Source: a virus (taxonomy: Duplodnaviria > Heunggongvirae > Uroviricota > Caudoviricetes). Taken from it: a stretch of 10,664 nt of DNA. The notes under the pieces were generated by a model. The model was given only the letters and a program-made list of their open reading frames with translations, searched no databases and was not told the DNA's origin. The DNA lies in the IMG/VR virus record IMGVR_UViG_2675903575_000010, positions 1 through 10,664 of that record. The stretch is one strand, 5' to 3'. Of this stretch, positions 6,852-9,477 are shown one piece after another; position 1 is the stretch's first letter; the number at the start of each line of letters is the position of its first letter. Both the position numbers and the translations under genes were made by a program.

Positions 6852-6874
6852 AGCCGGAACAATCCGGCTTTTTT
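6852..6874 (+). terminator. Rho-independent terminator after ssb
   Basis: Perfect stem AGCCGGA / TCCGGCT, loop ACAA, followed by a T run. Confidence 0.6.
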
Positions 6875-6960
6875 ACGGGTCCTCCCGATGGAGTGGCCTT
6901 GCCACGGGGCGGGAGCATCGCGGAAAAAGGCTGGTTTTTGCATTTTCATGGCGGCGGCAG
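6871..6960 (+). other. cos-like site, copy A (cosQ/cosN-like; candidate cohesive-end 12-mer GGGCGGGAGCAT at 6907-6918)
   Basis: TTTTACGGGTCCT..CACG GGGCGGGAGCAT CGCGG is 47/53 identical to copy B and matches the lambda cos layout recalled from memory. The downstream part (GGTTTTTGCATTTTCATGG) resembles the lambda cosB-proximal sequence but with a roughly 9-bp insertion (AAAAAGGCT). Confidence 0.55.
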
Positions 6961-7136
6961 CATGTGTGATAATTTATTGATAATTAAAAAATATTTCCGT
7001 TTTCACCTGTACAATATTTTTTTCGCCCTGTCATTAGACCAGTTTGTAATTAATTGAAATATATAAATAAATCCGTTTTTCACCTGCCAGGTGGAGTTGC
7101 CAGTGTCAAAACGTGTTCAGATGGCGGGATATTTAT

Positions 7137-7159
7137 GCCGGATTTTCTCCGGCTTTTTT
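7137..7159 (+). terminator. Rho-independent terminator inside the intergenic region between cos A and the capsid operon
   Basis: Perfect stem GCCGGA / TCCGGC, loop TTTTC, followed by TTTTTTG. No annotated ORF upstream of it within this intergenic region. Confidence 0.5.
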
Positions 7160-7261
7160 GTGTCTGAATCTGACTAATCTGTTTTCATGATAGAAATATA
7201 TTTATCTACCACTTTTATCGATCAATAATGCGCGCAGTTTAGTCAGTAAGAGGAAGTTACT

Positions 7262-7471
7262 GTGAATTGTATTAATGACCTGAACACAGGCGAGGTAAGA
7301 GGTGGTTCCGTTCATCTGGATGCGCAGACCGTTATGCGCCTTAAGCAGTACAGGATCGACCACATAAATCATCATCCTGGCCAACCATTACCAGGTGTGG
7401 CGCAGATTGTCAGACACGCAGTTAACGCGTGGCTTGATAAGAATGGTTTTGCATCTGGGGGTGAGCAATGA
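7262..7471 (+). CDS. Hypothetical small protein (69 aa), GTG start, translationally coupled to the capsid gene
   Basis: SD AAGAGGA about 7 nt upstream of the GTG. Stop overlaps the downstream ATG (ATGA). No family recognised. Confidence 0.5.
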   Translation: MNCINDLNTGEVRGGSVHLDAQTVMRLKQYRIDHINHHPGQPLPGVAQIVRHAVNAWLDKNGFASGGEQ

Positions 7472-9381
7472 ATCACTGGTACACCATTAAGGCGGCGGGT
7501 GTTCGCGGAGCGGCAGAAATATCCATCTATGAAGAAATTGGCGGCTTCGGTATCACCGCGAAGCAGTTTGCGGAAGACCTGAAAGCCCTGGGCGATGTCT
7601 CACATATCGACCTGCGGATCCATTCGCCAGGTGGTGACGTGTTTGAAGGCATCGCCATCTATAACCTGTTACGGAATCATCCGGCAGAAATTACGGTTTA
7701 TATCGATGGTGTTGCGGCTTCAATGGCTTCGGTTGTCGCAATGGCTGGCGATCGTGTTGTGATGCCGGAAAACGCCATGATGATGATACATAAGCCGTGG
7801 GGTATCTCTGGCGGAAATGCTGGTGATATGCGTGATTATGCTGATTTGCTGGATAAGGTGGAAACCGTGTTAATCCCTGCTTATGCCAGAAAAACGGGCA
7901 AATCAGCACAGGAAATTACCGCCATGCTGGAAGATGAAACCTGGATGGACGGGAAAGAATGCCTTAAGCAAGGTTTTGCTGATGAATTGTTGCCATCCGT
8001 CAGAGCAATGGCGCGAATTGAATCGAAACGCACAGGAGATTTTTCACACATGCCGGAAACCATTAAAGGAATGATTACCCCGCCACAGGGAGCAGCCAAT
8101 ATTGCTGGTAATGAACAGAAGCGCATCAACGGAATAAGTGAAGTGTTTAGCCTGTTCGACAGTCGTTACGACGGGATCAAAATGGCGTGCCTGGAAGATG
8201 CATCATGTACACCGGAGATGGCCCGTGAAAAGTTGTTGAACGAGATGGGGCGCGAGTCCACGCCATCAAATAAAAATACCCCGGCTCATATTTATGCCGG
8301 TAACGGGAACATAACAGGTGATGCAATTCGTCAGGGGCTTTATTCTCGTCTCGGGTATGAACGCCCAGAGCGGGGAAATCCTTACGCGATGATGAGCCTT
8401 TTTGAAATGGCCCAGGCATCACTAACGGATCGTGGTATCAGTGTTGGCGGTTTTTTAAATCGCTCGCAGGTCGTTAATGCAGCTTTCACACACAGCAGCA
8501 GCGATTTTTCTCATATTCTGGCTGGTGGTGCTGAAAAATCAGTACTGAAAGGCTGGCAGGACAGCGGCGAAACGTTTCAGAAATGGACGCGTACCGGATC
8601 GCTTTCAAACTTTCATGAAGCAAAGCGCGTTGGTCTGAATGGTTTTTCAAAGCTGGATAAAGTACCGGAAGGTGCGGAATATAAATACATCACCACCAGA
8701 GATAAAGGTGTACCTATTGCGCTGGCCACGTACGGGAATATTTTTTCCGTTACCCGTCAGGCCATTATCAACGATGACCTGACCCAGTTAACTACAATCC
8801 CCATGGCGATGGGGCGTGCGGCCGCCAGAACAGTAGGTAATCTGGTTTATCTTCTGTTAACCAGCAACGGCAAATTTACGGATGGTAAAGCGTTATTCCA
8901 TGCCGATCATAAAAATCTTATTGCGAAGGATATGGACATGGAGGGGCTTAACGAAGCCCGTAAGCTGATGCGACTACAGGAGGATGCCAACGGCGACTCC
9001 CTGAATATTACCCCCGCTTTTGTTCTGGTCCCTGCTGCGCTGGAGTCTGCCGCACATCGCGCCATTCTGTCATCGTCATCACTCTTTCCGGTTGATGGTG
9101 AGGGCACTATCAATCAGAACCCCGGCATCATTAACGTGGTGAAAGATATGGCTGAGGTTATTGTTGAGCCACGTCTTGATAAGAACAATAACAAGGAGTG
9201 GTATGTAGCCGCAGCGAAAGGGATGGACACGATAGAGGTCGCTTATCTTGATGGTATTGATACGCCATATCTTGAGGAGCAGGAGGGCTTTACTGTTGAT
9301 GGTGTCGCCTGGAAGGTGCGCATAGATGCAGGTGTTGCGGCCCTCGATTATCGTGGACTACTGAAATCGAGTGGAGCATGA
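7468..9381 (+). CDS. Fusion protein: N-terminal ClpP-like (S14) prohead protease domain + C-terminal putative major capsid protein
   Basis: 637 aa. N-terminal roughly 170 aa carry ClpP-type motifs: IHSPGG (compare ClpP INSPGG), GVAASMASV (catalytic Ser region), MIHKPWGISGG (compare MIHQPLGG), and GFADEL at the domain end. The remaining roughly 450 aa are assigned as capsid from size and position in a packaging module next to cos and terS; the fold itself was not verified. Confidence 0.75.
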   Translation: MNHWYTIKAAGVRGAAEISIYEEIGGFGITAKQFAEDLKALGDVSHIDLRIHSPGGDVFEGIAIYNLLRNHPAEITVYIDGVAASMASVVAMAGDRVVMPENAMMMIHKPWGISGGNAGDMRDYADLLDKVETVLIPAYARKTGKSAQEITAMLEDETWMDGKECLKQGFADELLPSVRAMARIESKRTGDFSHMPETIKGMITPPQGAANIAGNEQKRINGISEVFSLFDSRYDGIKMACLEDASCTPEMAREKLLNEMGRESTPSNKNTPAHIYAGNGNITGDAIRQGLYSRLGYERPERGNPYAMMSLFEMAQASLTDRGISVGGFLNRSQVVNAAFTHSSSDFSHILAGGAEKSVLKGWQDSGETFQKWTRTGSLSNFHEAKRVGLNGFSKLDKVPEGAEYKYITTRDKGVPIALATYGNIFSVTRQAIINDDLTQLTTIPMAMGRAAARTVGNLVYLLLTSNGKFTDGKALFHADHKNLIAKDMDMEGLNEARKLMRLQEDANGDSLNITPAFVLVPAALESAAHRAILSSSSLFPVDGEGTINQNPGIINVVKDMAEVIVEPRLDKNNNKEWYVAAAKGMDTIEVAYLDGIDTPYLEEQEGFTVDGVAWKVRIDAGVAALDYRGLLKSSGA

Positions 9382-9388
9382 CAACAAG

Positions 9389-9411
9389 GGCGGCGATAGC
9401 CGCCTTTTTTT
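9389..9411 (+). terminator. Rho-independent terminator after the capsid gene
   Basis: Perfect stem GGCGGC / GCCGCC, loop GATA, followed by 7 T. Confidence 0.6.
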
Positions 9412-9477
9412 ACGGGTCCTCCCGGTGGAGTGGCCTTACCACGGGGCGGCAGACGCGCGGGTTTTCGCTATTTATGA
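9407..9477 (+). other. cos site, copy B (lambda-type cosQ-cosN-cosB-proximal; candidate cohesive-end 12-mer GGGCGGCAGACG at 9444-9455)
   Basis: TTTACGGGTCCT (9409-9420) and CGCGGGTTTTCGCTATTTATGA (9456-9477) are identical to the sequences flanking lambda cosN as recalled (…TTTACGGGTCCTTTCCGGTGATCCGACAGGTTACG GGGCGGCGACCT CGCGGGTTTTCGCTATTTATGAAAA…), with the same 23-bp and 12-bp spacings. It lies directly upstream of a Nu1-like terS, as in lambda. Confidence 0.7.

Follow-up and report, generated by a model that had tools for sequence, protein, structure and literature searches.

Three candidate lambda-family cos sites with different cosB types in a PICI of the EcCICFT073 family

The window, the whole stretch of 10,664 nt analysed here, represents a PICI of the EcCICFT073 family (about 11.2 kb, inserted beside tRNA-Pro). 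We read it as an island with three lambda-family cos sites for three terminase specificities and, with them, a wider helper range, and we give this reading a probability of roughly 0.6. The island is probably packaged by several kinds of helper phage. The cosB regions of the sites, designated A, B and C, appear to be of three unrelated types, namely Tritos-type, N15-like and mEp460-type. Among E. coli PICIs, more than one cos site is known from a single model island, which has two. Judged by its sequence, the window is an extension of the published two-cos layout of the EcCICFT073 family to three sites. The island and its relatives suggest a directly testable reason for such multiplicity, in which each cos matches a different terminase specificity.

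Register and flanks of sites A, B and C

A direct repeat of 55 nt (6869-6923 vs. 9406-9460) was 89% identical between its copies. The initial annotation described a 53-nt repeat with 47 of 53 positions identical; the identity held, but the second copy lies at 9408-9460, and the positions 9407-9459 are one base off register (21/53). Both copies aligned to lambda cos without gaps, and the heptamer GGGTCCT, which we take to be the lambda cosQ heptamer, was found 23 nt ahead of each candidate 12-nt cohesive end. These ends, both in the register of lambda, are GGGCGGGAGCAT in A, within cosN (6907..6918, plus strand), and GGGCGGCAGACG in B (9444..9455, plus strand). The proposal that both copies reproduce the flanks of lambda cosN at the lambda spacing with differing 12-mers was borne out. 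Because the two 12-mers have mismatches at 4 of their 12 positions, an end of one kind could not anneal to one of the other. On the cosQ side, 36 of the 38 positions that run from the heptamer up to the 12-mer were identical between A and B. A further copy, on the minus strand, was complementary to A at 51 of 54 positions over 6896-6949, and the number of cos sites is therefore three. Sites A and B are real and in direct orientation, as annotated, but C had been overlooked; A and C form an inverted pair enclosing the capsid gene, B and terS. The nick context ACG/GGGCGG.../CGCGG (slashes mark the nicks) was in register with lambda, N15, Tritos and mEp460 at the level of sequence. Shuffled versions of related loci gave an expectation of 0.00 occurrences for the pattern GGGTCCT-N19-22-CGGGGCGG, which excludes chance. 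The identification of A, B and C as lambda-family cos sites is supported by their match to the lambda register and by a match to phage cos regions far past the short repeat.

Site A begins in the T-run of the intrinsic terminator after the SSB gene (6853..6874, plus strand; GCCGGA-ACAA-TCCGGC + T6, -14.5 kcal/mol, z -6.15), and B begins in that of the terminator after the capsid gene (9386..9412, plus strand; -16.2 kcal/mol, z -5.35), in agreement with the earlier observation that both copies start inside a terminator U-tract. These plus-strand hairpins were missed by the consensus scan and were folded directly instead. The cosQ-like heptamer of A (GGGTCCT, 6877..6883, plus strand) is that of lambda at the lambda distance of 23 nt to the nick. 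Behind the 12-mer lies a putative Tritos-type cosB (6919..7103, plus strand; 181/200 identical to Tritos bases 1-200), and A together with the 200 bases downstream matches the left end of Tritos at about 90% identity as far as the terS start codon. The Tritos record begins exactly at the predicted nick of A, with GGGCGGGAGCGT; PMC9928086 does not state whether that start was experimental. This cosB contains an IHF-consensus match (6970-6982, minus strand; bp 64-76), at which IHF binding is putative, and two direct R-like repeats, CGTTTTCACCTG (6998-7009) and GTTTTTCACCTG (7075-7086). The latter are the direct repeats with CCGTTTTCACCTG that had been assigned to an AT-rich region; they are present, and the region is the Tritos-type cosB of A. 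The insertion of about 9 bp that had been suspected in A is rejected since the alignment of A is gapless; the right flank is merely different, with a Tritos-type cosB substituted there. The Tritos homology stops a few bases beyond the Tritos terS ATG, and the window retains a remnant of a Tritos-type terS start (7104..7160, plus strand; GTG and a few codons), followed by a terminator recognized by hairpin folding (7137-7160, plus strand).

The cosQ-like heptamer of B (GGGTCCT, 9414..9420, plus strand) has a flank of the A/mEp type, not of the lambda type. The right flank and putative cosB of B (9456..9588, plus strand) starts with 22 nt identical to lambda (9456-9477), as the initial annotation had noted. 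The motif GGTTTTGTTGTT at 9500-9511 (bp 57-68 from the end) occupies the R3 position of lambda and resembles the GGTTGTTGTT of N15; its distance from cosN exceeds that in N15 by 7-9 bp. The stretch 9490-9580 had no match in any phage record, and the B 12-mer with its flank occurred in IMG/VR in only two island contigs of about 10 kb. B therefore looks like a chimera, with an A-like left half, the lambda-identical 22 nt on the right and an N15-R3-like motif before terS. The gene that follows (9589..10131, plus strand; Pfam Phage_Nu1, phrog_57) encodes a Nu1-family small terminase of 180 aa, which agrees with the Nu1-like terS predicted after B. Compared with N15 gp1, the island TerS shows 47% identity and a well-conserved N-terminal DNA-binding region; compared with lambda Nu1, it shows 36% identity over the full length, with similarity in the C-terminal half. 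It had no similarity to the DUF1441-type TerS of Tritos and mEp460, and a PDB sequence search with it gave no match.

Site C aligned with both cos and cosB of mEp460. Its cosQ-like heptamer GGGTCCT (10352..10358, minus strand) is 22 nt from the nick, a spacing shared with mEp460, and its candidate cohesive end, again GGGCGGGAGCAT (10318..10329, minus strand), is in register with lambda. The putative mEp460-type cosB (10135..10317, minus strand), delimited by alignment to the mEp460 cos region, contains an IHF-consensus match at 10256-10268 (bp 62-74) in the same orientation and at the same distance from cos as in A; here, too, binding is putative. The TerS proteins of Tritos and mEp460 both belong to DUF1441 but are only 42% identical, with divergent N-terminal regions, and this divergence fits the two different cosB sequences.

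The island and its relatives

The island has a unit length of 11,188 bp, the spacing of a 26-nt direct repeat that provides att-type flanks. Annotation and synteny revealed the PICI hallmarks, namely a terminal integrase, an alpA-type regulator, a primase with an adjacent ori, a size in the 10-20 kb range and att repeats, and the full virion gene set is missing. Iterons are located 3' of the primase gene. In place of Rpp, the partner that heterodimerises with helper TerS, the corresponding slot holds a full Nu1-family TerS, and the island is therefore a TerS-bearing variant of the EcCICFT073 family. Membership of the cf-PICIs was rejected, for the island has only the ClpP-capsid fusion and TerS and carries no portal, TerL or HNH genes. 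A P4-like satellite was likewise rejected; sid, psu, delta and the alpha primase were neither annotated nor found, and the cos sites are of lambda type, not P2 type.

A small ORF of 69 aa (7262..7471, plus strand; phrog_4934) precedes the capsid gene, as in EcCICFT073-family islands. Small ORFs occupy this place in EcCICFT073 and Nissle as well, a correspondence of position. The capsid gene (7468..9381, plus strand; Pfam CLP_protease, Phage_capsid_4) encodes a fusion of a ClpP-like prohead protease and an HK97-fold major capsid protein (637 aa). Its identity to the head protein of mEp460, Tritos, cdtI and Stx phages is 57%, and this is also the group of phages mimicked by A and C. The last ORF (10383..10664, plus strand; 93 aa, phrog_1561) is conserved and flanks the C slot, and the equivalent position in EcCICFT073 is taken by an ORF of likewise 93 aa. 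It had zero homologues in 50,697 phage records, and the idea that the last ORF and C form one phage-derived module was rejected on this ground.

EcCICFT073 has two cos sites that are experimentally functional (PMC6092414, PMC6739421), of which the initial annotation was unaware. Both are active as clones, and cos1 is coupled to RppA, the packaging protein next to it (PMC6092414, PMC6739421, PMC9026076). In the sequence of EcCICFT073, we located one cos-like site at the position of B (plus strand) and another at that of C (minus strand), and these are presumably the published cos1 and cos2; by sequence comparison, A is an extra slot. The gene order is shared: int, alpA-like regulator, Icd, DUF4222, primase, SSB, small ORF, capsid gene, cos, DNA-binding packaging protein, inverted cos and last ORF. 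Unlike EcCICFT073, the window has the third site upstream of the capsid cassette, a full-length Nu1/N15-type TerS instead of a 144-aa Rpp-sized protein, and a ClpP-capsid fusion instead of lambda-type capsid and decoration genes. Both EcCICFT073 sites carry GGGCGGCGACCT, whereas the window has GGGCGGGAGCAT twice and GGGCGGCAGACG once, none of them the lambda sequence. In addition, A and C of the window clearly carry phage cosB regions, and none was reported for EcCICFT073 (PMC6092414, PMC6739421, PMC9026076).

The locus survey consisted of DNA pattern scans with a strict motif and of alignments, so that site counts are lower bounds; the last ORF served as the anchor for 64 IMG/VR loci. Of the 5426 complete E. 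coli genomes, at least 156 contained the context of A and at least 96 that of C. The suggestion that A might prove absent from all related elements, as an insertion scar would be, was not upheld by these counts. Nissle 1917 and several IMG/VR islands also carry A (plus strand), B (plus strand) and C (minus strand). Nissle 1917 combines the A-slot cos with a lambda-type capsid cassette, and A was rejected as a mere part of the ClpP-capsid cassette. Between islands, the A and C slots differ in their phage-type cosB subtype, and cosQ, cosN and the IHF-region motif are intact throughout. In some other relatives, the terS/rpp slot holds a DUF1441 TerS homologue.

Islands that are 99.7% identical have exchanged the capsid cassette, and the breakpoint on the right falls precisely on cosN of B. 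In the comparison of the window with EC43, which has a lambda-type capsid cassette and no A, the left breakpoint is the SSB terminator, not a cos, and a swap by ligation of cos ends was therefore not supported. Among islands, the left half of B tracks the upstream capsid cassette. This exchange would also suit a different account, in which only B and the island TerS are used for packaging, and A and C were left behind by recombination with phages as modules were exchanged, having travelled with the capsid cassette and the last-ORF module. The truncated phage terS start behind A is in line with it, as are the absence of A from the close relatives EC43 and EcCICFT073, the absence of C from Z1323CEC0009 and the finding that EcCICFT073 transfer was not reduced by the deletion of cos2 (PMC6092414). 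However, every recognizable cos element is intact in A and C, with about 80-90% identity to phage cos regions; both persist across diverged islands in the genomes counted above; and the phage-type cos variants in the slots, of which there are several, are intact and not decayed. Moreover, cloned EcCICFT073 cos2 supported plasmid transfer (PMC6092414). We consider the leftover account unlikely.

Packaging by several terminases

In the preferred reading, that of three terminase specificities, A (plus strand) and C (minus strand) are near-copies of the full cos (cosQ, cosN, IHF site and cosB) of Tritos-like and mEp460-like lambdoid lineages, both with a DUF1441-type small terminase. As near-copies, they would let the terminases of these phages begin and end packaging on island concatemers without an island factor. 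B (plus strand), directly upstream of the gene for the Nu1/N15-type TerS, would be the island's own site and would take the slot of cos1 and Rpp in EcCICFT073. Since the C-terminal half of the island TerS resembles the TerL-binding part of lambda Nu1, it would recruit a lambda/N15-type TerL to B. About four island units would fill a helper-sized head; four units amount to 44.75 kb, and the genomes of mEp460 and Tritos to 44.5 kb and 46.4 kb. The homologies, the spacing, the conservation and the exchange of slots as modules are seen in the sequences; cleavage at A, B and C, the pairing of terminases with sites and any role of the island capsid homologue are inferred. Of the options offered earlier, that of different helper phages whose terminases recognise the sites would fit best with three seemingly unrelated cosB regions. 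Several points count against the preferred reading: A and B share an orientation and have different 12-mers, so a run between the two would leave non-complementary ends; the R3-like motif of B is displaced relative to N15; and close relatives lack A or C. In EcCICFT073, the deletion of cos2 increased transfer (PMC6092414), so an extra cos may be neutral or costly with a given helper.

Going further, we tentatively propose, as a possibility somewhat short of even odds, that slots A (after SSB), B (before terS/rpp) and C (inverted, before the last ORF) are interchangeable helper-range cartridges. Whole phage cos sites or cos + TerS units would be swapped by recombination at the conserved cosN core, and the window would hold three terminase specificities at once, two of them of DUF1441-TerS lambdoid phages (mEp460, Tritos, Stx-phage head type). 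To our knowledge, such phages have not been shown to be PICI helpers. As a further point against the preferred reading, the Tritos-type cosB was found at 182 places in 174 genomes, mostly as a single copy per genome and within an island, so co-residence with a matching prophage was not seen. In the closest genome, UTAK-5, a co-resident helper was not found; the prophage adjoining the island is no lambda-type cos phage but the remnant of an HK97-like myovirus, whose terminase is of the HNH/P27 family.

Lambda termination requires cosQ, cosN and adjacent bases, and the R sites are dispensable. The direct pair A/B, with its common orientation and near-identical cosQ-side halves, could accordingly be thought to make alternative packaged forms, cut at A and B in one run, as the initial annotation had also envisaged. 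The interval of 2,537 bp is far below the capacity of any head, and the tracking of the capsid cassette by the left half of B indicates module history rather than design; this use of the pair is very improbable.

The sites A and C might instead be mainly decoys that bind the DUF1441-type TerS or terminase of the helper, perhaps with unproductive cutting, and so interfere with the helper by reducing its packaging. Both imitate helper cosB sites completely and sit on an element that replicates to multiple copies; the island is without Rpp, the known interference protein of the EcCICFT073 family, and interference with helper packaging is general among PICIs (PMC6739421). Against this, a few sites per 11 kb make a weak titration mechanism compared with Rpp. 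Terminase bound to a site with cosQ, cosN and cosB should also package from it, which makes the decoy and packaging roles hard to separate. We regard a mainly decoy function as improbable. In EcCICFT073, the deletion of cos2 increased transfer (PMC6092414), so an extra cos may be neutral or costly with a given helper.

If the preferred reading of three specificities is true, the phages that mobilise a given island could be predicted from its cos content. Among the candidate mobilisers would be the Stx-phage-like head group, which is common in O157 strains; the island of the probiotic strain Nissle 1917 would also be concerned. A satellite-encoded Nu1/N15-type TerS would be a second route for cos packaging besides Rpp, and the slots would help in the design of PICI-based delivery vehicles with a chosen helper range.

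We know of no cos-type SaPI described with three sites, three cosB types and a TerS of its own. As cited in PMC6092414, cos-type SaPIs bear the cos of their helper, whose terminase packages them, SaPIbov5 encodes the capsid homologue Ccm, and SaPIbov4 has two putative cos sites. Unlike the window, they are Gram-positive, depend on HNH-dependent cos phages and are unrelated in sequence. The helper-embedded PICI 11capE matches its helper prophage over 258 bp with 90% identity at the place where the helper has its cos (PMC10111431). This is whole-cos mimicry, as in A for Tritos and C for mEp460, but with one shared cos and one co-resident helper, compared with two mimic sites and two lineages in the window. 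In the pac SaPIs, as cited in PMC6739421, a satellite TerS redirects the helper TerL to the satellite packaging site. The satellite-encoded small terminase is common to both, but theirs is a headful (pac) system with an unrelated TerS family, and that of the window is cos-type and Nu1-family. Finally, N15, whose cos and gp1 are described in PMC9026076, resembles the window in its TerS, its short interval between cos and terS and its GTTGTTGTT-type motif in the R3 region. It differs in its 12-mer, GGGCGGCGTCCG, and in the distance of this motif from cosN, and the window element is a satellite without TerL.

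Register of the cos repeats with lambda

A repeat search of the window returned a 55-nt direct repeat (6869-6923 vs. 9406-9460, 89% identical). The initial annotation had described a 53-nt repeat with 47/53 identical positions. This identity holds only when the second copy is placed at 9408-9460; the proposed interval 9407-9459 is off by one base and gives 21/53. The two genome ends of lambda were retrieved and placed in register with the copies, here called sites A and B. In both, GGGTCCT, the cosQ heptamer of lambda, sits 23 nt upstream of the lambda left-end position, and the nick context ACG/GGGCGG.../CGCGG is shared. 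The lambda ends bear out the proposal that both copies reproduce the cosN flanks at the same spacing. As proposed, the candidate 12-mers differ: GGGCGGGAGCAT in A (6907-6918, plus strand), GGGCGGCAGACG in B (9444-9455, plus strand) and GGGCGGCGACCT in lambda. To the right of its 12-mer, B is indeed identical to lambda over 22 nt, and direct folding agreed that A and B each start inside the T-run of a strong hairpin. The insertion of about 9 bp attributed to A is absent; the alignment is gapless and the right flank is merely different.

Both copies are real, but a third had been overlooked. Site C lies on the minus strand at 10287-10359 (heptamer 10358-10352, 12-mer 10329-10318) and is complementary to A (6896-6949) at 51 of 54 positions, with an identical 12-mer. 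A and C form a 54-nt inverted repeat (94%) enclosing the capsid gene, B and terS. Apart from one wrong detail, the one-base slip and the missed copy, the repeat observation is real, and its reading as cos sites is supported.

Phage affiliations of sites A, B and C

Searched against phage records, site A matched Tritos, whose record opens with GGGCGGGAGCGT, exactly at the predicted nick. Window 6907-7106 matches Tritos bases 1-200 at 181/200 positions, spanning the end, the whole cosB and the sequence up to the terS start codon. Because the match runs through the whole cosB, the AT-rich region with CCGTTTT(T)CACCTG repeats noted after A, whose repeats do exist, can be identified as a phage cosB. 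It holds direct repeats at 6998-7009 and 7075-7086 and an IHF-consensus match at 6970-6982. We found no paper that states an experimental mapping of the Tritos end. The homology ends a few codons into terS. At 7104-7160, a GTG and a few codons like the Tritos terS start are followed by a terminator (7137-7160); the stretch is what remains of a truncated phage terS beside cos A. That A and C are themselves recombination relics is an unlikely reading in our view.

The last two bases of the A 12-mer (6917-6918; 12917-12918 in the UTAK-5 locus L003) vary among near-identical islands. The 12-mer ends in GCAT in the window, as in the window's own C, and in GCGG in UTAK-5, RM11911 and locus L016, whose C sites keep GCAT (A sites of L003, L012 and L016). 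Gene conversion of A by C in the lineage of the window may explain the difference.

On the minus strand, site C aligns with the cos of mEp460 and with the different cosB of that phage. Its heptamer-to-nick spacing of 22 nt is that of mEp460, and its IHF match corresponds to that of A in relative position and orientation. The TerS proteins of Tritos and mEp460 both belong to Pfam DUF1441 but share only 42% identity, with divergent N-terminal regions, which is what two distinct cosB sequences would need. The island head protein is 57% identical to the head protein of mEp460, Tritos, cdtI and Stx phages, the phage group mimicked by A and C.

Site B is chimeric. Its cosQ-side half is of the A type and its right side is lambda-like over 22 nt; beyond these, no match was found in any phage record. 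GGTTTTGTTGTT, at bp 57-68 from the end, resembles GGTTGTTGTT of the N15 R3 region (located in PMC9026076). The island TerS starts 145 nt past the nick of B and is 47% identical to N15 gp1, the N-terminal DNA-binding region being well conserved. Its C-terminal half resembles the corresponding part of lambda Nu1, through which Nu1 binds the large terminase (PMC9026076). The island protein shows no likeness to the TerS of Tritos or mEp460. In IMG/VR, the B 12-mer with its flank occurs in two island-sized contigs only, so no phage with that end is known. UTAK-5 is one base longer than the window between the capsid stop and the terS start (window 9381-9589), and the shorter window shifts the annotated terS coordinates by one.

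Probable packaging specificities and comparison with EcCICFT073

E. coli UTAK-5 and TK3896 have, next to tRNA-Pro and yejM, a chromosomal island to which the window is essentially identical. The window begins at the start of the integrase gene and ends with the stop codon of the last island ORF; the island is flanked by two copies of a 26-nt direct repeat, 11,188 bp apart. The gene order (integrase, HTH regulator, YlcI, Icd, DUF4222, primase followed by iterons, SSB, small ORF, capsid gene, packaging protein, last ORF) matches that of EcCICFT073, the model PICI, as retrieved from CFT073. The capsid product is a 637-aa ClpP-protease/HK97-fold capsid fusion, and a full-length small terminase of the Nu1 family takes the place of the packaging protein in this order.

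We consider it probable (about 0.6), from the sequence comparisons, that the three sites confer three packaging specificities. A Tritos-like terminase would act directly on A and an mEp460-like one directly on C, and at B the island TerS would recruit a large terminase of the lambda/N15 type. Recognition by terminases of different helper phages is the best of the options offered in the initial annotation. Another, that the A/B pair exists for making alternative packaged forms, strikes us as very improbable. Packaging that starts at A might, in principle, terminate at B and leave unlike ends; recombination between repeated units might still yield a circle, because the packaged DNA would be a multimer. 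Since C is inverted, runs begun there never meet A or B in usable orientation. Four island units amount to 44.75 kb, matching the genome sizes of candidate helpers, in line with the published packaging of EcCICFT073 as multimers in full-size heads (PMC6092414).

EcCICFT073 has two sites, cos1 and cos2, both with lambda-like cosQ and cosN and each functional once cloned; cos1 is required for transfer and is recognised by the Rpp-TerS complex (PMC6092414, PMC6739421). Deletion of cos2 raised transfer somewhat (PMC6092414). That A and C serve as decoys for helper TerS seems to us quite improbable. In CFT073, one plus-strand cos-like site lies directly upstream of a gene for a 144-aa HTH protein, a length within the published Rpp range (c1503 is RppA; PMC6092414, PMC6739421). 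A second, minus-strand site lies between this gene and the last ORF. Both carry lambda's own 12-mer and occupy the B and C positions of the window; at the A position no cos site was found. The upstream site is presumably cos1, given the cos-rpp layout in PMC9026076. The two-cos arrangement was therefore already known; what the window adds is the A slot, the replacement of Rpp by a TerS and the presence of three different cosB types. The three-cos island extends a published kind of multi-cos PICI. After the inverted CFT073 site (L005 14150-14290, minus strand), probably cos2 of the publications, come three copies of CCGGACAT/ATGTCCGG that resemble the R elements of phage-type cosB regions; according to the original papers, no phage cosB was found in EcCICFT073 (PMC6092414, PMC6739421).

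Conservation and exchange of the cos slots

The SSB-A-cosB-ORF-capsid context was found in 156 of 5426 complete E. coli genomes (at least 80% coverage), and the terS-C-last-ORF context in 96 genomes of that set. The Tritos-type cosB was counted at 182 places, spread over 174 genomes, about 156 of which have the island context; it is thus mostly island-borne, and co-resident matching prophages are rare. The probiotic strain Nissle 1917 carries an island with three cos sites (A and B plus, C minus), a lambda-type capsid cassette and a Nu1-type TerS (L013 7178-10557, from a derivative of the strain).

We gathered 64 IMG/VR loci through the last ORF and scanned them with the strict motif GGGTCCT-N19-22-CGGGGCGG; degenerate sites escape it, as does the one in the A slot of L014. 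Most matches fell into three classes: minus strand just upstream of the last ORF, plus strand about 1 kb upstream, and plus strand 3-3.7 kb upstream. In a few loci the site immediately upstream of the last ORF was on the plus strand instead, or the arrangement differed in other ways. Without exception, sites in the A and B slots were on the plus strand, and several loci had all three slots filled. All A-slot sites had a cos of the DUF1441-phage type; their cosB fell into at least four subtypes, and their 12-mers varied. C-slot sites were lambda-like, N15-like or mEp460-like. In the related island of E. coli Z1323CEC0009, the B slot (L011 10521-11195) has a cos of the mEp460 type and, after it, a DUF1441 protein that shares 68% identity with mEp460 TerS. 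Within this family, one and the same slot is therefore occupied by Rpp, by a Nu1-type TerS or by a TerS of the DUF1441 type.

Outside the cassette, EC43 is 99.7% identical to the window (L010 8340-10416 vs. window 6850-9443). Its cassette has lambda-type capsid, decoration and AlpA-like genes in place of the ClpP-capsid fusion, lacks A, and carries a lambda-type left half of B. Identity resumes exactly at ACGGGGCGGCAGACG, making the cosN of B the right breakpoint. The conserved cosN core is therefore one breakpoint of cassette exchange, and the upstream capsid cassette takes the cosQ-side half of B along with it.

In UTAK-5, no matching helper was found beside the island; the adjoining prophage has an unrelated packaging type. 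The block between the island right end and yejO (L080, 1574000-1602000) holds genes for an SOS-response peptidase, Y-family polymerase/umuD-like, DinI, HipA and DUF3037 proteins, together with an HK97-like myovirus prophage that is truncated by IS1 and encodes a terminase of the HNH/P27 family. The block has no relation to lambda-type cos packaging.

Other repeats were seen in the window. Direct and inverted GTGAACAG-type repeats at 6008-6093, just 3' of the primase gene, are probably the island replication origin. A 24-nt repeat (..ATGAATAAAAAGGGAAA, 88% identical) links 6079-6102 in this region with 9517-9540 within the cosB of B; it may be due to chance. Two tandem 22-nt copies of GTGGGCCACACCTAAAACATAT at 2762-2806 (L003 8762-8806) lie in the regulatory region, close to the genes for YlcI-like and Icd-like proteins, and may form an operator.
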